Assembly (NCBI GenBank): GCA_028534125.1
Contig: CM052816.1
Coordinates: forward strand, 54,314,001 to 54,378,000
Source: Lama glama
Taxonomy: Eukaryota
Reading direction: 5' to 3'
Length of the DNA stretch: 64,000 nucleotides
The notes under the pieces are model-generated. The model made no database searches, was not told where the DNA came from, and saw only the letters and a program-made list of their open reading frames with translations. Below are positions 12,884 through 48,704 of the stretch, piece by piece; within the stretch, counting starts at the first letter, position 1, and each line of letters opens with the position of its first letter. The position numbers were made by a program, and so were the translations under genes.

Positions 12884-14512
12884 TCACAAACCTAGAACAA
12901 ATAATCCTAAAGTTTATATGGAATCACAAAAGACCCAGAATTGCTAAAGCAATACTGAAGAAAAAGAACAAAGCTGGAGGAATAACCCTCCCAGACTTCA
13001 GACAACACTACAGAGCTACAGTCATCAAAACAGCATGATACTGGCATAAAAACAGACATATGGATCGATGGAACAGAAGAGAACCCAGAAATAAACCCAC
13101 AGACCTACAGTCAATTAATCTTCAACAAAGAAGGCAAGAATATACAATGGAGTAAAGACAGTTTCTTCAGCGGGTGGTTCAGAAAACTGGACAGCAGCAT
13201 GTAAATCAATGAAGTTAGAACACTCCTTCACATCATCGAAAAAATAAACTCAAAATGGCTTAAAGACTTAAATATAAGACAAGACACAATACATCTCCTA
13301 GAAGATAACATAGGCAAAACATTCTATGACATAAATCTTAGCAACGTTCTCCTAGGACAGTCTACCCAGGCAACAGAAATAAGAGCAAAAATAAACAAAT
13401 GGGACCTAATTAAACTTATAAGCTTTTGTACAGCAAAGGAAACCATAAGCAAAACAAAATAACCTTCAGAATGGGAAAAAATATTTGCAAGTGATGCAAC
13501 TGACAAAGGTTTAATTTCCAGAATATATCAACAGCTCATACAACTTAATAACAAAACCCCAAAAAACAAACAACTCAATCCAAAAATGGGCAGAAGACCT
13601 AAACAAGTAATTCTCCAATGAAGACATACAAATGACCAATAGGCACATGAAAAATGCTCAATATTGCTAATTATCAGAGAAATGCAGATCAAAACTACAA
13701 TAAGGTATCACCTCACATCAGTCAGAATGGCCATCATTAAAAAATCTGAACGATAAATGCTGGAGAGTCTGTGGAGAAAAGGCAGCCCTCCTACACTGCT
13801 GGTGGGAATGTAGTTTGGTTCAGCCATTATGGAAAAAGTATGGAGAGTCCTCAAAAAACTAAAAATAGACCAAAAATTCCCCTCCTGGGCATATATCCAG
13901 AGGGAACTCTAATTCAAAAAGATAATGCACCTCAGTGTTCATAGCAGCACTATATACAACAGCCAAGACATGGAAGCAACGTAATGTCCACTGATAGGTG
14001 ACTGGATAAAGAAGTTGTAGTATATTTATACAATGGAATACTACTCAGTCATAAAAAAGATTAAACTAATGCCATTTGCAGCAACATGGATGGCCCTGGA
14101 GATCATTATTCTAAGTGATGTAAGCCAGAAAGATAAAGAAAAATACCATATGATATAACTTATATGTGGAAACTAAAATAAAAAAAGAAAAAAAGTACAC
14201 TAATGAACTCATCTACAAAACAGAAACAGACTCATAGACCTAGTAAACAATTTTATGGTTACCAGGGGAAAGAGGGTGGGAAAGGATAAATTTGGGAGCT
14301 TGAGATTTGCAAAGGTTAACCATTATATATAAAAATAGATAAAAAACAAATTTCTTCTGTATAGCTCAGGGAACTGTATTTAATATCTTGTAATAACCTT
14401 TAGTGAAAAAGAATACGAAAATGAATATATGTGTATATGTGCGTGCCTAGGACATTATGCTGTACACCAGAAATTGACATTGTAACTGACTGTATTTCAA
14501 TAATCTTCTTTT
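12884..14512 (+). mobile_element. Younger 5'-truncated L1 (ORF2 C-terminal part and 3' UTR)
   Basis: Well-preserved ORF2 sequence with frameshifts; candidate TSD aaaaatgca at ~12871-12879 and ~14513-14521. Confidence 0.9.
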
Positions 14513-17675: not shown

Positions 17676-19181
17676 AAATGAAAGGTATCCAGTTTGGAAA
17701 CAAAGTAGTAAACCTGTCTTTTTTTAGCAGATGATATCATTGTCTATTTGGAAAATCTGATGGAATCCATAAAAAAGCTGCTAAAATAACGAATGTAGGA
17801 ATGGTGCAGGAGAGAAAATCACTACAGAGAAATCAGTTGTACTTGTATATAACAACAGTGAGCAATCAGAAACTGAAATGAAGAGAATAGTACTTAAACA
17901 GCTTCCAATAATATGAAATAATTTTAAATAAGTCTGAAAAATGATAGATAAGCCCTGTACACTGAAAACTACAAAACAGAATTGAGATAAATTAAAGATA
18001 ACCTAAGTAAATGCAGAGCTAGACCGTATTAATGGATCACAAAACCCAATACTGTGAAGATGACAATTTTTGCCAAATGTTGGGTTGTCATCTTAATCAT
18101 AATTTCAGCAGGCTTTTTTGTGGAAGTTGGCAAGCTGATTCCAAAATGTACACAGAAATAAAAAGACTAGAATAAAAAATGTTAAAAAAAAAGACTAGAA
18201 AAGCCAAAACAATTTGGAAAAAGAACACAGTTTGAGGATTGACAGTACCCAATTTCAAGACTTATAAAGCTACAGTAACCACGACTGCATTGAGATGGAC
18301 AGATAGATCAACGGAACAGAATACAGCCTCCAGCAAGAGAACCACACATAAATGGTCAACTGGTTTTTGACAAAGATGTAAAGGCAGTTCAGTGAAAAAA
18401 GGACAGTCTTCTCATTAAGTGGAGCTGGAACAACTGGCTATCCAAATGCCAAAAAACCCTTTCACCCACATCTCACTCTGCATACAAAAATAAACTCAAG
18501 ATGGAGCATGGACCTAAATATAATAGGAATAACTATCATCTTGTAAAAGTAAACATGGGAGAAAATCTCTGTGATCCTGGGTCACCAAAGGTTTCTCAGA
18601 TGTAACAACTAAGGCATGATCCACAAAACATGGATAAACTGGACTTCACAGAACCTCTCCACTTTGGAAAACATTGTTAAAAGAATAAGACAAGCCACAG
18701 ACAGGGACAAAATATTTGCACATATCTGATAAAAGACGTTTCTCCAGAATATATATGAAGAACTATCAAAATTCAACATTAAGGAAACACACAACTCAAT
18801 TCAGAACTGAGTGAACCATGTGAACCTACAGTTCACCAACGAAGATATACAAGTGATGGCCAGGATGTGCGCGACTCGAACTCTCATGTTACTTGGTGGT
18901 AATGGAAAATGGTAAAAAAACAAAAAAAAATTATGAAGCAGTTTGAAAGTTCCTTAAAAAGTTTAACATGCACCTACCAAATAATGCAGGAATTTACCAA
19001 AGAGAAATGAAAGTACATGTTCCGTCAATGCCTTTACATGAATGTTCACAGCAACTTTATTTGTAATGGCCAAGTCTGGAAACAACCCAAATGTCCATCG
19101 ACATTTGGATGTTATGAACAAATAAACGAATTGTGGTATAGTTATACAATAGAATACTACTGAGCAATAAAAAGAAATGAA

Positions 19182-19859: not shown

Positions 19860-19990
19860 GCAGCTCATCAGGTCCCTCTTCTGTTCCATTGATCTATTTG
19901 TCCATCTCAATGTGGTCATGCCTACTGTAGCTTTATTAAGTCTTGAAATTAAGTACTGTAAATCCTCAAGTAACCCAAGATTATAAATAT
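19860..19990 (-). mobile_element. Ancient L1M ORF2 fragment, minus strand
   Basis: 'ctgttccattgatctatttgtc...tactgtagctttattaagtcttgaaat' is the reverse complement of a common ORF2 motif. Confidence 0.65.
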
Positions 19991-22900
19991 TTTCTCCCAT
20001 GTTTTCTTTTACAAGGTGATTAACTTGTAAGATATGAGGCTGGTAACTTACGTATGAATAATTTCAGATAACCTAATTTAGTCTGAATGCATCAGTCAGC
20101 TACCTAGCACCATGCAAGGCCCTTCAAGGAAGGAGGAGTCAGGATGGAGAAGACACTGAAAGCTGCTGGAAGTGACAAGTGCAGTGGGCCAGTACCTGAA
20201 CAAGGGCTGAGCTGTGTGCTGTGCCAGGAAGTACAGGGAGGGCCCCGAAAGGCCAGAGGCCACTGTGCAGGGGACATGCAGCAGGAGAAACTGGGTTCCT
20301 AAATCTCCCTTTGATGCCTGTCTGGGACTTGGGAGCCAGGACTAGACAGGGAGCCAAGAAGCTGAGCATTCTTGAGTGGAGGCTCTGGGGACAAAGCACA
20401 TACCATGTCACAGGAGGGGACAAGGGGCCAAGTACTGGGACTTCAGGTCACCTGGACAGAACTTTTAGGCAACAGAGAGCCAGCGGAAGTTTTTGAGATA
20501 GAAATAAGTGATCTGAGCAGCATCTTGGGAAGATGAATCTGGCAGGGGATGCAGGATGGACTGAGCGAGAAGGACCGGCTTTAACTCGGTGCTTCTGGAG
20601 AAAGCGAATGTTCTCTGGGAGAAAGGAGATCTAAGGGACCATCCTGAAATTGCATTTTCTTCTCCAAATGCTGCCACTGAAAATGGGATGCTAAAGGTCA
20701 AGATTTCTCAGGGAATCAAATTATTTTCACACTTGAGGAACCCTATCCTCTCGTCAGGGATTATTACTCACAAAGGCCACGCCAGCTTCAATGGCCCAGC
20801 GCATGAGTTGGAGGTGATAATCACACTCTCGAAGGACAGCCAGGCGAGCAGCTCGTGAATGAAAAGGCGCACGCACAGATGACTCACCTAGGTCTGTGAC
20901 TCAGTGTTGTTACAACCTTAGCAAGATGTAAAACTCCCTGGGCTACCATTGGTATTTCCTGAATCAAAAGTCAAGGGCACTGCCAACAAAACCAGCTGGA
21001 AAGCATGCTTGGGGCCAGAGATGAGTTCGACCACAGAGCGGGTGGCTCTTCTCCACCACCCACTCCACAAGGGCGGCGCCGCTTCGCACCACTGAACCGG
21101 GAGGAATGCTGGCTCACCTTCAGCATCCGTGTAAGGAGGAGATTCCTTCTGAACAAAAGGAGGCAGCTTCTTTTCCTGTCTTTTTACCCCTTGCCTTTTT
21201 AGGAAAGATACTAGTTTTATGTTTTCTTGGGAAACCAAATTTCAACATCCATTCTTCTCTTTAACTTCACAAATAGCAGTCAGTCTTGTCTCAAAAGCAC
21301 TTTTGAAAGGTCCTTTTTCCTAGCACTTTACCTTCCCGCTTCAATAGAAGCTAAGTTAAGAGACCCCAGAGGGCCTGGATTCCCCTGGTCCCCACCAGCT
21401 TCTGTCTCTGGAGGGCCTGCTCTGGGCCCCACCTTGCACACCCTCACTGAAGGGCCCTGGCCGGCCACCAGGAGGCTGCCAGTCAAGAGCAAAGCCCAGA
21501 ACCCTGAAGCCCCCCAGGTACTGATTAGGTATTTTACAGATGCTACAGGTTTAATGCTACTTTAAATTCCTAATCCAGAAAACAATCCTGGCGGGAATGA
21601 CTGATCAAACAGTTCCCTCTGAGTGTGAACTGACTTATCAAAAGATATGGCAACATGCACAGATGCACACCCAGCCAGGAGCCTGCCAGTCGTCAGTGAG
21701 CTGCCGCCACCATGTACAACCCCCACCCCCACCTGCCAACTTGGCCTGGAAGGCTGTGTTTCCGCAGCAGTGAATTCCCCAAGCACAGGTACTGAGGTCC
21801 TCAGGTCCAGAGGAAGAGCTGTGGCCACAGGGAGGGGTAATGATGTGCATTCTAACTGCTCTGAAGCAAAAAGAGGCCCTGCCTGAGCCTGGCCCATCCA
21901 CACAGCTCCCCACCTAGGGCAGCTGTGAGGCCCACCCTGCAGCACACGCTCCTCCCGGGGGCGGGGGGCGAAGGCGCTGTCCCCTCAGCACCATCGTGCC
22001 ATCCAGGGTAGCACCCCTTATACACATGCTGACACGAAACATAGCGCTTCCATGGTAAAGGGCGCAGCCAGTGTGCTGCCTCACCAGGGGCCATGGTGAC
22101 ACAGAAAGAAGACGCGGCGTTTCAGCCCTGAGGAGCCACAAGGACGATGGCTTATTGAAGACAACTTTTTAAAAAATTGACATTCTCATGGCCTAAAGGG
22201 TGCTGGGTGAGTCACATTTAAGTTGAAACAGAAAACTAAATGAATCCCATCCACACCATTAATTCCCCTACCAGATCCCCTAGCCATGAGACAGTGATCT
22301 GGAAGGAAAATGGCAAAGAGAATACTCTCAGCTGAAATGGTAACAAGGCTTGGGATGAAGACTGTGGAATTAATTTTTGTTTCAAGTGTCCCAAGTCTCC
22401 CTATAATCAGGAAGTCAGGTGCCTTCTGCACTGGAGATAGAGAAGATCCTGTGTCTGGGCAATTCTGGGCAGAGGGACACCTGCCCAGAACATCACTCAT
22501 CCATTCTGGAAGCACCCCTGCCCCGGCCCCATGTACCCAGTGCAGGGTCCCCTCCTCACGGAGCCAGCAGGGACAGTGGCTGTCTCGTCAGCCGTCTCTA
22601 GGGCCAGTGCCTGTCCGAGAAGACCTTCCTGCTGACTTGCTGGAGCTCAGAGTCTGTGCTGTGCCCCGTGCTCCCTAGCCCAGATGCAGCCTGTGGACGA
22701 GCACACGCAGGAACCTCCACAGCTACCCAAACCCAAAGGCTTTTCTCCCGCAGGATGCAAACGCTCATTTCACAGACATTCTGTGTGCCCAGGCCCAGGA
22801 GGGACAGATGATGAAGATGTAGCCCCACGCCTGGCAGCTCCACAGTGGCCTGGCCCTGCTTGTGTGAATGACACACAGACCATCCTTTTGTCTGGCTGCT

Positions 22901-28496: not shown

Positions 28497-29565
28497 GCAG
28501 GACAGTCACATGCAAAAGAATAAAACTCAACCACCACCTTACACCATACACAAAAGTCAACTCAAAATGGATTGAGCGCTTGAACATAAGACCTGAAACA
28601 ATAAAACTCTTAGACGAAAACATAGGTGATAACTCCTTGACACTGGCCTCGGTGGTGATGTTTTAAAAATCTGATACCAAAAGCAAAAGCAACAAAAGCA
28701 TAAATAAACGAGAGGGACTTCATCAAACTTAAAGACTCCTGCACAGCAAAGTTAATCACCAAGAAAACAAAAAGACAACCTACCAAATGGGAAAAAATAT
28801 TTGCAAATCATATCTGATGAAGAGCTAATATCCAAAATAGATAAAGAATACATACAACTTACTAGCAAAAATCCAAATAATCCAATTAAAAAATGAGCAG
28901 AGGATCTGAAGAAGACATACAGATGTTACACAAATAGGTGCTCAACATCACTAATCATCAGGGAAATGCAAATCAAAACCACAATAAGATTATCACCTCA
29001 TACCTGTTAAAAACTAAAGAAATAACAAGTGTTGATGAGGATATGGAGAAAAAGGAACCCTTGTGCATGGTTGGTGGGAATGTAAATTGGTGCAGCCGCT
29101 ATGGAAAACAGTATGGAGAATTCTCAAAAAATTAAAAATAGAACTACCATACAATCCAGCAATTCTACTTCTGGGTATTTATTCAAAGGAAACAAAATAA
29201 CTAACTAGAAAAGATACATGGACCCTCATGTTCATTGCAACATTATTTATAACAGCCAAGATATGGAAACAACCTAAGTATCCACTGATGGATGAGCGAA
29301 TAAAAAATTGTGGTATACATATACAACAGAATATTATTCAGTCAGAAAAAAGAATGAAATCTCGCCACGTTTGACAACATGGATGAGCCCTAAAGGCATT
29401 ATACTAAGTAAAATATATCAGATACACAGAGAGAAATACATATGATCTCTCTTACATGTGGAATTAAAACAAAACAAAAAAAACAATCTTAAATTACAGA
29501 GCCGGGGGTGAGGGTTGGGAGAAATGGGTGATAGGGCTCAAAAGTAAAAAGAAAAGAGAAAAAAA
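28497..29565 (+). mobile_element. L1 ORF2 3' end and partial 3' UTR lying in the spacer of the host L1
   Basis: Paralogous to host 34165-35260; ends in an A-rich tract at ~29546-29565. Confidence 0.85.
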
Positions 29566-29885: not shown

Positions 29886-32648
29886 AGAGAGATAGAAAAG
29901 AGAAAGAGACACACAGGTAGGCAGGCAGGCAGGCAGGCAGACCGACCTGGGCTAGGAACACCTGTATGAAGTTGATAGCACTGAAGTTCATGGTATAAGC
30001 CATGCTGATGAGTCCAACTGCTGGAGTCACCCTGCCCAGTCTCTAAGCTAATTCAGGCTGATATATATACACTAAGAGCCTAATTCTACAGTGGTTTCTT
30101 GATTCCCCACTACTTACCTGCACAGCCTGCTTGACTAGAACTCAGAAAACCTTCCCAGCTCTAGCTAGGCCCCTACACTCACTAAAGGACCTAAAGCCTG
30201 CTCTCCAGAATTTCCGCCCACTGGCTGAACCCCCAAATTAGCAGCCAGCTGACTAAATATCTCAATCATCTGAAAATATAGTCTGACCTGCCCTACCCAC
30301 CATATCTCCCTTAGAATGCTTCTGCAGGTCCAGATCAAGCTTGAATATGGAATAGCTTTTTACCCTTTCATTTGCTAAGGTCCCAATAGCCTTCCCAAAC
30401 TCCCCTTTCTAGGCTAAAATGGAATTAATGGATAATATCTCTGAAGAATTTAGGGGATGTACACAAAGGAAGAAGAGGGCAAACAAGAAAAAGGGCTGGG
30501 AGGGACGACTGGGGCAGTAGTAGCTGCACAAACCAAAGGAGGAGATTCAGAGGGGACAAGGGGTTCAGCAAGGTAAGGAAGTACAATGAAAAAGTCTTTG
30601 GACCTGATCCTCGGGAAGCCACTAGGGCACTGTGAGAGGACATCTTCATAGACTCTGGGGCAGAAGTGAAATGCTGAGCTGCTGGATGTCAGAGGTAAGG
30701 GCAGCAAAGAAGTTTTTCGAGGAAAGGCAGAGGTGAGATTGTTTGTTAAGAGTTTAAAAACGAAATATTTCAGGCATGTGGGGATCCCCCTCCACCATGT
30801 TTTAGTAGGCTAATAGAAGAAGCTATGGACTGAAAATAAAAATATGGGCAAGAGTGGTTGGGGTATTTGATCATGGGACAGAATTAAGGGGACAGGTAAA
30901 AGATTTGACTTGGAAAGTAGAGACTGTAGGGGACCCAAAAATAGGGATAGGGGATGGAAATAATACATGAAGATAGTAATTTTTTAAAAAGACGCAAATT
31001 GTAACATCAAAAACATAAAAGTAAAAATGTAGAGCTTTAGAATGCATTTAAACTTCATTTAAGTTATATCAACTTAAAATAGACTTATAAATATGTTTTA
31101 TGTAAGCCTAATAGTAATCACAAGGCAAAAACCTACAGCAGATACACAAAAGAGAAAGAGAAAGGAATCTAAGCATATCACCATGAAAAGCAACAAGTCA
31201 CAAAGGAAGAGAGCAAAAGAAGGAAGGAACAAAGGAATTGCAAAACGGCCAGAAAGCAATGAACAAAATGGCAGTTAGCCCATACTTAACAATAATAACT
31301 TAAATGTAATGGACTGCATTCTCCAGTCAAAAAACCAAGTGGCTAAATGGATAAAAAATAAGACCCAAATATATGCTGCCTATAAAAGACTTACTTCTGC
31401 TTTAAGAACACACACAGACTCAAACTAAAGGATGGAAAAAGAGATTCCACACAAATGGAAAACAAAGAAAGCTGGGGTAGCTACACTTACAACAGACAAA
31501 ATAGACTTCAAGATAACGACTATGATAAAAGACAAAGAAAGTCATTATATAATGATAAAGGGATCAATCCAACACGAGGATATAACATTTGTAAATATTT
31601 ATGCACCCAACAAGGAACATGTAATTATATGAAGCAAACATTAACAGATGTAAAGGGAGAAGTTGACAGCAATACAATAGTAGCAGGGGATTTGAATGCC
31701 CCACTTTCATCAATGGATAGATGATCCAGACAGAAAAATCAATAAAGGAACATTAGACTTAAACTATATAGTACACCATATGGACTTCAGATATTCACGG
31801 AACATTCTATCTGAAAGCAGGAGAATACCTTCTTCTTAAGTGCACAGAGAATATCCTCCAGGATAGATCACATGTTAGGCCACAAAACAAGTCTTAATAA
31901 ATTCAAGATAACTGAAATCATATCAAGCATCTTTCCCAACCACACTGGTATGAAACTAGAAACAATTACAAAGAGAAAACTTGAAAATTCACAAACTGGA
32001 GATTAAATAACAGCTACCGAACAACCAACAGTCAAAGAAAAAAGAAATTTAAAAATACCTTAAGACAAATAAAAAATGGAAAATACAACATACCCAAAAC
32101 TTACGGGATGCAGCAAAAGCACTTCTAAGGGGGAAGTTCATAGAGATAAACACCTACCTTAGAAACCAGAAAGATCAAATAAACAACTTAACTTTATACC
32201 TCAAGGAAACAGAATGACAAATTAAGCCCAAAGTTACTAGAAGGAAGGAATTAAAGATCTGAGCAGAAATAAATGAAATAAAACTAAAAAGACAATAGAA
32301 AATATCAATGAAATTAAGCACTTTTTTTTAATAAAATAGTCAAATCTTTAGCTAGACCCACCAAGAAGAGAAGAGAGAAGACTCAAAATCAGAAGTGCTA
32401 TATAGTGCTATAAGAGATTCTCAACAAAATATTACTAGACCAAATTTAACAGTTATGTTAAAAGGACCATACACCATGATAAAGTGGGATTTGTCCCTGG
32501 GATTCAAGGATGCTTCAACATTTGCAAATCAATGAATGTGATAGACCACATAAACAAAATGAAAAATAAAAATCATGATCATCTCAATAGATGCAGAAAA
32601 AGCACTGGACAAAATTCAACATCCATTAATGATAAAAACTCTCAACAA

Positions 32649-33192
32649 CTCTTCACAAAGATGGCACCAAAAGTGAAGCAGGAAAACCCTGCCTCTCCCA
32701 AAACAAGACTTTGAAGGCCAAGAAAGCAGTGCTAAAAGTCGTCTCCAGCCACAGCCACACACCACATACCCAACACTCACCCACCCACACACACACACAC
32801 AATACATGTTACCCACCTTACAGCACTGAAAATACTGTAGCTCTGCAGGCAGCCCAGATGTCCTGGAAGAATGCCTCCAGGAGAAACCAGCTTTTACTAT
32901 GCCATCATCAAATTCCCCCTGACTACCCAGTGAGCCATGAGGAAGACAGAAGACAACACCACATTTGTGTTTATTGTGGCTGTCAAGGCCAACAAACACC
33001 AGCTCACATAGGCTGTGAAGAGACTCTGTGACACTAACACAGCCCAGATTAACACCCTAACCTGACCTGGTGAGAAGAAGGCATTTGTTTGGCTCCAAAC
33101 TGCAATGCTTTGGATGTTGCCAACAGAACTGGAATCATCTAAACTCAGACCAGACTAATTCTAAATATAAATTTTTTTTTTACCAGAAAAAG
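32649..33192 (+). pseudogene. RPL23A: RPL23A processed pseudogene inserted in L1 ORF2
   Basis: Intronless, ATG 32661 to TAA 33140-33142. Remnant peptides [40 protein letters not shown] and ALDVANRTGII*, with frameshifts and stops. Short A tail; TSD aaactct[ca/tg]acaa at 32636-32648 and 33193-33205. Confidence 0.95.
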
Positions 33193-35589
33193 AAACTCTT
33201 GACAAAGTGGGTGTAAAGGGAATGTACCTCAACATAATAAAGGCCATATATGGCAATCCCATGGCAAACATCATACTCAGTGGTGAGAAACTTGAAGCTT
33301 CTCCTCCAGGATCAGGAACAAGACAAGGATGTCCACTCTTGCCATTTTTATTCAACATAGTACTGGAAGTCCTAGCCAGAGAAACTAGCAAAGAGAAAGA
33401 AAAGGCATCAAATTGGAAAGAAAGAAGTAAAACTGTCTCTATTTGCAGATGATATGATCTTCTAAAATAGAAAACCCTAAAGACTACACCCAAACACTGT
33501 TAGAATTAATAAATAAATTCAGGAAAGTCACAGGATACAAAAATCAATATAAAATAAGCTGTGTTTTCTGTGTGCTAATGATGAACTAACAGAAAGAGAA
33601 AATAAGAAAACAATTCCAGTTACAAGTGCAGACAAAAGAAAAAATACCTAGAAATAAATTAAACCAAGGAGTTCTAAGACTTGTACTCTGAAAACTTTAT
33701 AAAACATTAATGAAAGAAATTGAGGAAGACACAAATAAATGGAAGTCTATTCCAGGGTCATGAACTGGAAGAATTAATATTGTTAAAATGCCCATACTAC
33801 CCAAAGCAATCTACAGATTCAATGCAATTCCTATTAAAAAATTCCAATGGCTTTTTTCACAGAAATAGAACTAACGATCCTAAAATTTGTATGGACCACA
33901 GAAGACCCTGAATAGCCAAAGAAACCTTGGGAAAGAAGAACAAAGCTGGAGGCATCATGCTTTCTGATTTCAAACTGTATTACAAAGCTGTAGTATCCAA
34001 AACAGTATAGCATTGGCATAAAGACAGACACATAGATCAATGGAACAGAGAATCCAGAAATAAATCCATGCATATATGGTCAAACTACGTACAACAAACG
34101 AGCCAAGAATACACAATGAGGAAAAGATAGTCTCCTCAATAAATGATGCTGGGAAGGAAAACTAGACAGTCACACGCAAAAGGATGAAACTAGACCACTA
34201 TCTTACATCACACACAAAAATCAACTCAAAATAGTTAAAGACTTGAACATAAGACCTGAAACCATACCACTAAAAGAAAACATGGGGGACAAGCTCCTTG
34301 ATCCTGGCAATGATTTTTTTTTTTTTTACATTTGACACCAAAAGCAAAAATAAACAAGTGGGGATACATCAAACTAAAATGCTTCTGTACAGCAAAGTAA
34401 ACCATGAGCAAAATGAAAAGACAACATACTGAACAGGAGAAAATATTTGCAAATCATAGATCTGACAAGGGAGTTCATGATCTAAAAACATATAAAGAAC
34501 TCATACAAGTAAACAGCAAAAAATCTGATTAAAAAACGTCCAGAGGATTTGAATAGATATTTTTTCAAAGAAGACATACAGATGGCCAACACATACACAA
34601 ATGGGTGCTCAATATCACTAATCACCAGGAAAATGCAAATCAAAACCACAATGAGATATCAACTTACACCCATCAGAATGGTTATTATCAGAAAGACAAG
34701 AAATAAGTGTTGATGAGGATGTGAAGAAAAGGAAACCTTTGTGAACAGTTGGTGGGAACGTAAGCTGGTGCAGCCACTATGAAAAATAGCATGGAAGTTC
34801 ATCAAAAAATTAAAAATAGAACTACCGTATGATCCAGCAATTCCATTTCTGTATTTATCTGTAGGAAATAAAATCACTATTTGGAAAAGATACATGCACC
34901 CTCATATACACTGCAGAATTATTTATAATAGCCAAGATATGGAAACAGCCTATGTGTCCATCAACAAATGACTGGATAAAGAAAATGTGGTTTATATGTA
35001 CAATGGAATATTATTCAGCTATAATAAAGAAGGAAATCCTGCCATTTGTAATAATATGAGTGGACCTTGAGGGCATTATGACAGATGGAGTAAGTCAGAG
35101 AAGGACAAACACTATATGATGCCACTTATATGTGGAATCTAAAAACAAAAACCAAAGAACCTGAGGTCACAAAGAGAACAGACTGGTGGTTGCCAGAGGC
35201 AGGGGGTTGAGAGGCGGGGGGTTGAGAGGTGGGTGAAATGGGTACAGGCAGTCAAAAGATACAAATTTTCAGTTCTGAAATAAATTAGTCCTGGGGAATG
35301 TATGTACAGTGTAGTGACTACAGTTAACAATGCTGGATTGTGTATTTGAAAGTTGCTAATGGAGCAGATCTTAAATTTTCTCATCAAAAGGAAAAAAATG
35401 TGTAACTGTGTAGTGATGGATGTTAACTAAACTTATTGTGATTATTTTGCAATGTACACATATCAAATCATTATGTTGTACATTTAAAACCAATAGTGTT
35501 ATATATTAATTATTTCTCAATTTTAAAAAATCTGAGCCAATGCAGAAAACTGTGATCTAGATTAAGTCACAATGTAGATTAAAAAATTC

Positions 35590-38466: not shown

Positions 38467-38764
38467 CAGAAACAGATTCAAAGACATAGACTACAAACTT
38501 GTGGTTGCCAGTGGGGAGAGGGGGTGGGAAGGGACAGACCCGGAGTTTGAAATTTGTAGGTACTGACAGGTATATATAGAATAGATAAAAAAATTATACT
38601 GTACAGCACAGGGAAATATATACAAGATCTTGTGGTAGCTCACAGTGAAAAAGAATGTGAAAATGAGTATGTGTATGCTCATGTATAACTGAAAAATTGT
38701 GCTCTACACTGGAAATTGACACAACATTGTAAACTGACTATAACTTAATAGAAAAAAATTTTTA
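38467..38764 (+). mobile_element. Young L1 3' UTR fragment
   Basis: 15 bp TSD aaaaagtcac[g/a]cttg at 38452-38466 and 38765-38779; tttt|aaaaa target site. Confidence 0.9.
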
Positions 38765-40329
38765 AAAAAGTCACACTTGAACGTGAGCCTTGGGAGAACA
38801 CGGCAAATATTCTTTGTAATAGCACGTAAGACATATATCGGAAACTCTACATCTAATAATAATTTGGGACTAGACAGGGCTGCATCTTTAATTTCCTATG
38901 TCTTCCAAAGGTTATTGTATTAAGGAGTAAAAGTTAATTTTCAAGATACCTTTCTAATATCTACTGGGCACACACAGTGGCCTGAGGTGAGAACTGATCT
39001 AAAGCCATGTAAGATTAACAGGCCAATGGGAAATGCAGAAAAACAGTGTCACTGTCACCCTTATCAGTGGGGAGACAGCAGGCAAGTTCAGGAAGACTTC
39101 TTGGAGGGAAGAGGAGCTGGATTGAGCCCTGAAGGCAAGGAGGCTGCAAAGGATTTACACCATTCAAAACATGCAACAAAGGTAATCAAGACAATAATTT
39201 TAAGAATGATACATGTTACATATTTTGGGGAGAGAAATGGGCCAGATAACCTTCAAAGACTCTGCAATTATGTGTACTCATGGGCAGGAGAAGCACATCT
39301 CTGGGCATATTTGGATCATTTGATCTATTTGCCATGTAATGCAATATTCAACAAAAATGAGGATAAAATTAATATGCTAGTAAAATCCAAGTAGAGCCCG
39401 TTAGATGCTGAGGTTCTAGACAGATCAGAAACCTGAAGAGTGTGTTTTCAGGATGCAGAATCATAATGGTGTTAGAAATACAAAGTGGCATCAGTAAGAG
39501 GTGTATTGAGGCTACAGAAAAAATTCTCCCCACCTTGTTTCTATGGATACTTCTATGTTAATGCAGGAAATAAAAAACAAAAGAAACCACGTGGCCTCTC
39601 TCAAATATTGGAAATGCAGGACACACTGAAAACTTGTTTTTATCACCAGGGATCAGCAGTGACCATAAACCAGGAAGTGACCCTACTTATCCTTGTCTCC
39701 TGGCTCCCTGCACCTGCCACCCTCTTTCCGTTTCACCGAGAACGCCGTGGCATGAGACCACCTGAACTCTAAGGCCCCTGTTCTGCACCCTCTGAGGGGA
39801 AGCCCCCAAATCATGACCAGGCCTAGCAGCCAAGCCACTTGCCAGGAAGGAGAGGAGTAGGGGGAGCCCAACCTGGCAAATGTGGAACGAGTAGAGGCCG
39901 AGGGACAGCAAGGGGCAAGATGTGCCCAAGAGAAGGCCATTCTGCAGGTGGCAACTAGAAGGGTCCCAGGGGCAGTGGGCGGGAGGGCAAGGTGCCTGGT
40001 GCTCCCCACTCTCCACCCAGCAGCTCTAGAAAAGTAACAGCTAAGTTTTTGCTGCAGTTTGAAAACTAATGAAAGGTGCCCCCACATCTCCCCAAACAAA
40101 AATGTTCCCTGAAGGTCTGCTTAAGCACCCATCATGTAAGGGGACAGCATGCCTAGCGGCCTGGGGCCAGGGTGACAGCCTCCTTTCCCAGGAGGCTCAG
40201 TAAGTCTGCTGCTGACTCACTGGCAGAAGCTAGACTGTGCGCACAGCTCTCTGGCCCCTTCTATCGCCTGTAAAAGGGTGCGGGGACCTGGATTTCTGGT
40301 GAGATTTGGCAGGGGAGGGAAGGGCGAGA

Positions 40330-44160: not shown

Positions 44161-44909
44161 TGGGGTCAGCAGTTTGTCTCTAAAAAGCCACCAGGGTGTC
44201 CTGTGATTCTCCCTCCACCCATGTCACCTCTCATATAGACCTCATCCTTCCTCCTGGATGTCTAAACTGAGCTGTTGAGAGAATTTTTTTCCTATGAAAG
44301 TCAAGTCCCTTCCTTTCTCAGAGGTCTCCAAGGACTTGCCTCTCCGCGTGCCTTTATGGCATTAAGTGAAAATTTCCTGACTCCAGATGAAATGCTCAGT
44401 GCTGAAGGAGGCATTTTATGCTGAACTAAAGTACATGATTGCTTTTGTTATTCTGGAATATTTCTCTGATGTTCTTAAGAAGAACAAAGCTGGAGGAATC
44501 ACGCTTCTTGATTTCAAACTATGTTCAAAAGCTACAGTACTCAAGACAGCACTGGTACTGACATAAAAACAGACACATAGATCAACGTGTCTATAAATGG
44601 AGATCAACACAGAGCCCAGAAATAAACTCACATATACATGGTCAATTAACTTATGACAAAGGAGTCAAGAACATACAGTGGGGCTAAAACAGTCTCTTCA
44701 ATAAATGATACTGAGAAAATTAAACAGCCACATGGAAAAGAATGAAACTGGACCACTATCTTACATAATACACAAAACTTTACTCAAAATGGATTAAGGT
44801 CTTGAATGTAAGGCCTGAGACCATCAAACTCCTCAAAGAAACCATAGGGGATAAGCTCCTTGCCATTGGTCTTGGCAGTGATTTTTTGACACCAAAAGCA
44901 AAGGCACCA

Positions 44910-46052
44910 CATCAACAAGAGAAAGGACAAAAACCACATGATCATCTCAGTCAATGCAGAAAAAGCATTTGATAAAATTCAACATCCATTTATGATAAAA
45001 ACTCTCGCCAAAGTGGGTATAGAGGGAACATATCTCAACATAATAAAAGCTNNNNNNNNNNNNNNNNNNNNNNNNNNNNNNNNNNNNNNNNNNNNNNNNN
45101 NNNNNNNNNNNNNNNNNNNNNNNNNNNNNNNNNNNNNNNNNNNNNNNNNNNNNNNNNNNNNNNNNNNNNNNNNNNNNNNNNNNNNNNNNNNNNNNNNNNN
45201 NNNNNNNNNNNNNNNNNNNNNNNNNNNNNNNNNNNNNNNNNNNNNNNNNNNNNNNNNNNNNNNNNNNNNNNNNNNNNNNNNNNNNNNNNNNNNNNNNNNN
45301 NNNNNNNNNNNNNNNNNNNNNNNNNNNNNNNNNNNNNNNNNNNNNNNNNNNNNNNNNNNNNNNNNNNNNNNNNNNNNNNNNNNNNNNNNNNNNNNNNNNN
45401 NNNNNNNNNNNNNNNNNNNNNNNNNNNNNNNNNNNNNNNNNNNNNNNNNNNNNNNNNNNNNNNNNNNNNNNNNNNNNNNNNNNNNNNNNNNNNNNNNNNN
45501 NNNNNNNNNNNNNNNNNNNNNNNNNNNNNNNNNNNNNNNNNNNNNNNNNNNACAGAGAATACAGACTTGTGGTTACCAGGGGGGTGGAGGGTGGGAAGGG
45601 ATAGACTGGGATTTCAAAATTGTAGAATAGATAAACAAGGTTACAGTGTATAGCACAGGGAAATATACACAAAATGTTAGATAACTCACAGAAAAAAAAT
45701 GTGACAATGAGTGTGTATATGTCCAGGAATGACTGAAAAATTGTGCTGAACACTGGAATTTGACACAACATTGTAAAATGATTATAAATCAATAAAAAAT
45801 GTAAAAAAAAAGGTGGGAAGGTAGTGTAGTGTAGTTTTTCTCCAATTTTCTCAGTTTTCATCTAATTTAAATATAAAAATAACTTTAGGAGAAAAACATT
45901 GTATTTCTACCTGTTACCCCAAATATTTTCTAGATTTGAAAACATTATCTAGTAGACTTTGATCTCTGAGAGTGAAGAAACTTTTAAATTTATCTGTTTA
46001 TTAATTAGTCAATAAATAATAATACAAGTGTTTTGAATGGAAAAAAAAAAAA
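44910..46052 (+). mobile_element. Young L1 with 3'-transduced unique DNA (45812-46040) and a second poly(A)
   Basis: Intact RT peptide [24 protein letters not shown]1 poly(A) 45803-45811; AATAAA 46011-46016; A12 46041-46052; perfect 17 bp TSD caaaagcaaaggcacca at 44893-44909 and 46053-46069. Confidence 0.9.
45052..45551. other. Assembly gap (500 N) within a young L1
   Basis: Run of N in the sequence. Confidence 1.
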
Positions 46053-47565
46053 CAAAAGCAAAGGCACCAAAACCCTAAATAAACAATTGGGACTGCATAT
46101 ATCAAACTAAAAAGCTTCATGTGGCAAAGGAAATCAACAACAAATCAGGAAGGCAACCCACCAAATGAAAGAAAATGTTTGCAAATCATGTATCTGATAA
46201 GGGAGTTAATATTCAAAATATATAAAGAACTCATACAGCTCAATAGCCGAAAAAAAAAAAACCAGTTAAAAAGTGGGCAGAGAATCTGAATAGACATTAT
46301 TCCAAAGAAGATGTACAGATGCCCAACAGATACACAAATGGGAGTCTGATATCACTAACCATCAGGGAAAAACAAATCAAAACCACAGTGAGATACCAAC
46401 TCATACTTGTCAAAATGGCTATTATCAAAAAGTAAAAAAAAATAACAAGTGTTGTTGAGAATATAGAGAAAATGGAACCCTTATGCACTGTTGGGAATGT
46501 AAATTGCTGCAGCCACTATGGGAAAACAGCATGGAAGTTCCTCAAAAAATTTAAAATGGAACTACTATATGATCCAGCAGTTCCATTCCTGGGTATTTAT
46601 CCAAGGAAAATGAAATTCTTAACTCTAAACAATACATGCACCCCCATGTTTACTGTAGCATTATTTACAATAGCCAAAACACAGAAACAACCTAAGTGTC
46701 CACTGATGGTTGAATAGATAAAGAAAATGTGGTTATATACATATACAGTGGAACATTATTTAGCCATAAGAAAGAAGGAAATCTCGCCATTTGGGACAAC
46801 ATGAATGGACCTTGAGGGCATTATGGTAAGTGAAATAAATTAGACAGAGAAAAACCAATACTTTATGTTATCACTTATATATAGAATCTAAAAACAAAAA
46901 CTTGAACTCATAGATACAGACAACAGATCGGTGGTTTCCAGAGGTGGGGGTTGGGGAGTGGTTGAAAGGGATGCAGGTCAAAGGTATGAACTTCCAGTTA
47001 TAAGTCAGTCAGTCATGTACAACATGGTGACTACAGTTAATAATACTGTATTGTATATTGGAAAGCCACTGAGAGTATATCTTAAAAGTTTTCATCACAA
47101 GAAAAAAACCTGTACATATGCGATGACAGATGTTAACTAGAGTTACTATGGTGATCATTTCATATATGTACCATGAACCTTTTTCTTTTAAAAAAAAAAG
47201 CATGTGGACACGGATCCTTAGGTGGGTTGAGACACCAGCAGGAAGCCTTGGGCAGGCTCACTGCTCAGCCCCCTCCCCTTGGGAGCTGCCTTCTCACTAT
47301 GGGGAGCCCAGGTATTTTTCGTCCAGCATCCCCCTGTTTACTGCCTTGCCTGACCAGGCCTCCTCCTGATCCCACACCACCCTCCAAGTCTCTGACATGT
47401 TACGCTAAAATGGCTTACACCCTGAAACCCTTCATATCCTTGAGAGACACTGTCCCTTCTTTATAAATCTTCATCTAAGTCAAATGCCATATTTTGTAGG
47501 TTTCAAAAATAGATGATTGGTGGTATGTATATTACCAAAACATGGTCTATTTTTGAAAACCTACA

Positions 47566-48643: not shown

Positions 48644-48704
48644 CTGCTTATTACTGTCGGTGGTACAACACAGTTTCTTGAGGGAGACAAAATGCCTAAT
48701 TTTC
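48644..48704 (-). CDS. PDE8B: PDE8B coding exon (~exon 10), 61 nt: (G)[20 protein letters not shown]
   Basis: Minus strand TTATTAG|GAAAATTAGG...AAGCAG|GTACCG; the frame continues from the previous exon. Confidence 0.96.

Follow-up and report, generated by a model that had tools for sequence, protein, structure and literature searches.

A very likely partnered L1 3′ transduction inside an older L1 of the llama genome

The original reports of L1 3′ transduction are said to be those of Moran 1999, Goodier 2000, Pickeral 2000 and Szak 2003. Human L1 insertions are among the closest known systems: in the figures given by PMC13009371, about 25% of them carry 3′ sequence, two tails are found in 72% of the partnered ones, and the poly(A) signal of a partnered transduction lies 10–30 nt before the second tail. 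Among non-primate mammals, the dog provides a close comparison, with 18 transductions reported in PMC7980453 and 322 loci in PMC13103737. PMC8605555 refers to transduction in general terms, and in the literature that we searched no L1 transduction map for camelids was found.

Here we analysed a stretch of 64,000 nt of Lama glama DNA (hereafter the window), in which a 5′-truncated L1, a non-L1 tag and two poly(A) tracts lie between identical repeats inside an older L1. The layout is that of a textbook partnered L1 3′ transduction, and judging from the sequence we give this reading a probability of roughly 0.88.

Layout of the insertion and the host L1

Each part listed in the initial annotation, including the AATAAA motifs beginning at 45791 and 46011, was found where the annotation had placed it (Table 1). 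What had been described as one L1 body is indeed L1 sequence, but it consists of two pieces split by 500 N, a gap to which the annotation referred only as a possible place of mis-joining. Both A tracts have an AATAAA ahead of them, and the L1 retains its own 3′ end and A9 tract in front of the tag.

Table 1. Coordinates, strands and properties of the insertion, the surrounding L1 and the neighbouring exons
Feature	Position	Strand	Properties
Host L1 left of the insertion: older, decayed ORF2 segment	44477–44892	+	74% to 33933–34319, 70% to 12961–13314
Target-site duplication, left copy	44893–44909	+	17 bp, or 16 bp should its first C stem from the tail
Inserted 5′-truncated L1, 5′ end: open ORF2 reverse-transcriptase piece	44910–45051	+	142 bp
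Assembly gap, run of exactly 500 N	45052–45551		inside the inserted L1
L1 3′ UTR, younger family	45552–45802	+	251 bp; own AATAAA 45791–45796; 96% to 579–674, 75% to 38484–38769
Internal A9 tract, putative remnant of the source element's tail	45803–45811	+	
Non-L1 tag	45812–46040	+	229 bp; 26.6% GC; AATAAA 46011–46016
Terminal A12 tail	46041–46052	+	24 nt past the tag's AATAAA
Target-site duplication, right copy	46053–46069	+	
Host L1 resumed: rest of ORF2, 3′ UTR, A-rich end near 47190	46070–47200	+	73% to 34336–35447
Three in-frame exons of a PAS-domain gene	51773–51633, 50113–50025, 48704–48644	-	AG/GT borders, matching phases

At its 5′ end, the inserted L1 reads without a stop for 48 codons (44908–45051), which match residues 585–632 of human ORF2p (8uw3, E 6.4e-19), and Pfam RVT_1 matched the same ORF2 piece with an E value of 1.1e-4, short of the curated cut-off. 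Measured against human ORF2, 1,932 nt of coding sequence should come after residue 632, and about 50–60 nt of 3′ UTR would also be expected inside the gap. Hi-C scaffolding typically inserts exactly 500 N as a placeholder, and these 500 N probably stand for about 2 kb if the L1 is collinear. With ~2 kb hidden in the gap, the insert would measure ~2.6 kb instead of 1.1 kb, although an inversion or a deletion inside the gap is possible. The inserted L1 copy is dead, having no promoter, no ORF1 and half of ORF2.

Exactly two copies of the 17-mer CAAAAGCAAAGGCACCA are present in the 64 kb; they start at 44893 and 46053, which agrees with the identical 17-bp target-site duplication proposed initially. 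None of 3,000 shuffled pairs shared 17 bp (longest match, 13), nor did any of 3,000 pairs of genomic 81-nt windows lying 1–3 kb apart (longest match, 14), and the 6,000 control pairs thus reached 14 bp at most. This one duplication encloses L1 sequence and the non-L1 tag together, and its two copies stand on opposite sides of the gap. It may be 16 bp long and not 17 bp, the first C then being derived from the tail. The alignment with an older L1 copy (32545–32643) runs on into the last four nucleotides of the left repeat, ACCA, which reveals 5′ microhomology with L1 ORF2. Both a duplication of 16–17 bp and short 5′ microhomology are described as typical of truncated L1 insertions in PMC2912911. 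The nick site is TTTTG/G with a 17-bp duplication or TTTT/GG with a 16-bp one, compared with the consensus 5′-TTTT/AA, so that four T are present in either case. With the 17-bp version the primer would end in TTTTG, and L1 is reported to extend terminal mismatches at lower efficiency, a terminal G being the least favoured in vitro (PMC3649969). Points against the read-through account set out below are the atypical nick site, the 500-N gap in the middle of the L1 and the lack of a listed sequencing run with all 19 tag words. Neither the 16-bp nor the 17-bp version of the duplication alters the reading.

Removal of the insert restores an older L1, consistent with the earlier claim that the host L1 resumes collinearly. 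The left host segment contains stops in all frames, and the right-flank match at 34336–35447 continues the left-flank match that ends at 34319, both in the same old L1 copy. When the left flank, one repeat copy and the right flank were joined, they aligned with the old L1 at 28579–28769 with 72.6% identity over 197 columns, ungapped across the repeat. A second old L1 copy (34242–34412) aligned across the site at 71.1% with small gaps near it, and two further old copies gave a right-side alignment only. Taken as a proxy for the empty allele, these paralogues support a pre-insertion site with a single repeat copy. Since both flanks are one older L1 that is joined at one repeat copy, the insertion itself must have duplicated the repeat; for the same reason, the sequences on either side of the gap form one locus regardless of how they were scaffolded.

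The 229-bp tag and the probable origin of the insertion

The 229 bp between the two A tracts had been called non-L1, AT-rich DNA, and the analysis bears this out: the GC content falls in the lowest 1.1% of 1,259 windows. No second copy of the tag was detected within the 64-kb window (best E 0.14). Four more L1 3′ ends were detected in the window, only one of them from a close relative, and the tag followed none of these; the closest relative, at 579–674, has a 13-bp duplication of its own and stops at its own tail. Because these ends lack the tag and the closest member terminates without it, the tag is not a family consensus, a check foreseen in the initial annotation and answered here from the four L1 3′ ends just named.

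Other origins for the tag were also considered. A coding sequence was ruled out by the lack of a long ORF, and a structured RNA by the lack of any Rfam match in the window. A foreign origin was rejected as well, as the resemblance to 13 plasmid records is confined to 39 AT-rich bases (17% cover, E 4e-4; a single gene from one genus), which we attribute to chance. One 24-base word of the tag had no exact match in a metagenome collection, a result that is uninformative for a mammal. On the minus strand, which is the sense strand of the host gene, the tag contains a further AATAAA (45997–46002), as expected by chance in such AT-rich DNA.

Among the 24 sequencing runs listed, nine contained at least half of the tag's 19 sampled words, and these came from three coded organisms and six studies. 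The best listed run had 14 of the 19 words and none of the 24 had all 19. Four rows were discarded, three at a share of 0.10 and one at 0.00, and eight DNA rows with shares of 0.26–0.47, which add four more coded organisms, were not counted as support. No RNA run appeared among those listed with tag words, which is evidence neither way. In a simulation, 14 of 19 words corresponded to about 1–3 substitutions; a single organism alone ranged from 5 to 13 words, so loss of words in the index is as likely a cause as substitutions. The tag is genomic DNA common to related animals, and word sharing of this kind cannot separate a donor locus from an orthologous insertion.

We infer that the insertion arose in one event of target-primed reverse transcription by L1 proteins. 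Transcription of a source L1 elsewhere would have run beyond the AATAAA and the short A tail of that element into 229 nt of flanking genomic DNA, and the transcript would have been polyadenylated 24 nt past the downstream AATAAA. ORF2p would then have nicked the bottom strand of the older L1 at the site and primed on the new poly(A), copying first the tag, then the internal A tract, the 3′ UTR and ~2.1 kb of ORF2, and halting at about ORF2 residue 585, within the RT domain. The cDNA would finally have joined the target through the 4-nt microhomology (ACCA), leaving the target-site duplication of 16–17 bp. The sequence itself shows the succession of parts, the exact duplication, the collinear host and the point of truncation, while the read-through, the donor locus and what the gap contains are presumed. 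This account draws on the exact 17-bp repeat around L1 and tag, the restored host L1, the two tails each preceded by AATAAA and the absence of the tag from the sibling copy, as well as on the typical repeat length, the 5′ microhomology and the tag words common to several organisms. Read-through of the L1 poly(A) signal, as proposed in the initial annotation, is the best reading, and every internal hallmark of it is present; the words "clear" and "established" used there are too strong. We prefer "very likely", because the donor copy, which is the defining feature, is here a predicted one and two rarer mechanisms would give the same layout.

In the first of these mechanisms, a short 3′ fragment of a cellular mRNA or an orphan transduction would have entered the L1's poly(A) tail at a later time, with an all-A duplication that is invisible; in the second, ORF2p would have jumped in a single event from the tail of an mRNA to the 3′ end of the L1 RNA. 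Either would be expected to produce the same order of parts and a single visible duplication, A tails are targets of the endonuclease, and the tag resembles an mRNA 3′ end in being AT-rich with AATAAA 24 nt before the tail. However, the internal A tract of 9 nt is short for an all-A duplication of 12–17 nt, and such events are far rarer than read-through, for which PMC13009371 gives ~25% in human and PMC7980453 gives 18 of 1,121 dimorphic dog L1s. Taken together, these two mechanisms seem improbable.

Somewhat less probable still is that the tag belongs to an unrecognised multi-copy element, as its 3′ end, or is a fixed extension of an L1 sub-lineage, and not a single-copy flank. A single copy in 64 kb is compatible with a family numbering hundreds or thousands, but the tag is missing from all four other L1 ends of the window, and a sub-lineage extension would itself have started as a transduction. 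Insertion of the L1 ahead of a pre-existing retrocopy was ruled out, as no second duplication surrounds the L1 part. Finally, a scaffolding artefact, in which the gap sides come from different loci and the repeat pair and insert are accidental, would agree with a round placeholder gap in young L1 sequence but is very improbable, since the outer flanks are one old L1 meeting exactly at one repeat copy, the inner ends share element type, orientation and order, and the tag, both tails and the right repeat all lie on one side of the gap.

Age and genomic setting

With 17-bp repeats that are still identical and a 48-codon piece that is still open, the inserted copy must be much younger than its host L1, although these features give no close date. 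The initial annotation had further suggested that the source element may be recently active. This was not supported, given the tails of only 9 and 12 A, the presence of tag words in several organisms and the sibling differences: over 97 columns, 3 positions and 1 gap set the copy apart from its nearest family member in the window (about 4%). The short tails and this ~4% distance are indirect signs of an older event, and the sharing of tag words would suit either a donor locus or a shared insertion of older date. The insertion is probably an older fixed copy and not a new one. It is rather unlikely, if less so than any of the rival origins above, that the tag points to a source L1 which still segregates and can retrotranspose, or to a tagged sub-lineage that has left several offspring, in a group for which no transduction map was found, and that the antisense intronic copy is itself polymorphic and could serve to mark lineages.

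At higher coordinates than the insertion, three in-frame exons on the minus strand belong to a PAS-domain gene, the first of them (51773–51633) encoding the PAS domain (Pfam PAS, E 4.2e-5). The gene is a candidate PDE8B; a search of the ESM Atlas with the host exon returned generic bacterial PAS clusters only, below 0.9, and did not supply a gene name. The insertion lies ~2.6 kb past the splice donor of the exon at 48704–48644 and is antisense to the gene, and a motif search found no later exon further along the window. The insertion is probably situated in a long intron of this gene. All L1 pieces found with three probes (12961–47814) are on the plus strand and hence antisense to the gene, which is the usual bias of intronic L1.

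Several other features of the window were recorded. The copy at 579–674, 97 bp long and 5′-truncated, belongs to the young family of the inserted L1 and shares 96% identity with 45714–45810; its 13-bp duplication is AATTCATTTTACA, and its target looks like an MIR. At 18232–18599 and 19879–20020, part of an old L1 recurs in rearranged and inverted form, with arms 78–91% complementary and 1.4–1.7 kb apart, which is perhaps an old local inverted duplication. An old L1 ORF2 is interrupted by ~500 bp between 32648 and 33193. The ORF of this stretch (32636–33031) has a weak match to the N-terminal part of ribosomal L23 (E 0.008, short of the cut-off) and is possibly a piece of a decayed RPL23A retrocopy. 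Sixteen further ORFs searched against Pfam gave no match above the curated cut-off.

Comparison with known L1 transductions

The locus is a fresh instance of a well-known and common mammalian event. As 3′ transductions are frequent among L1 insertions, with hundreds catalogued in humans and dogs, a single locus carries little weight. Its tag is a barcode that could tie the insertion to its source element, and its presence or absence in related species would offer a dating and phylogenetic marker. Only if the source proved to be intact and dimorphic would the locus bear on ongoing L1 activity in the lineage.

Compared with the canine LINE-1_Cf 3′ transductions, including the "parentless" ones (as described in PMC7980453 and PMC13103737), the llama copy is alike in being a germline event recognised in the assembled genome of a mammal other than a primate, with a tag that serves as a lineage marker. 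The canine cases described there are dimorphic and mapped to donor loci, whereas the donor of the llama copy is hypothetical and its empty allele is represented here by old L1 paralogues. It differs from the human partnered transductions of PMC13009371 in belonging to a non-primate mammal, in having a candidate source that is only inferred and in its short tails and probably older, fixed state. It shares with those transductions, as they are presented in that report, the 5′-truncated L1, the internal A tract, a unique 3′ tag with its own signal, a second tail and one duplication. Against the class of 5′-truncated L1 insertions with junction microhomology, as characterized in PMC2912911, the nick at TTTTG/G or TTTT/GG stands apart from TTTT/AA, while the 16–17-bp duplication and the short 5′ microhomology are alike.
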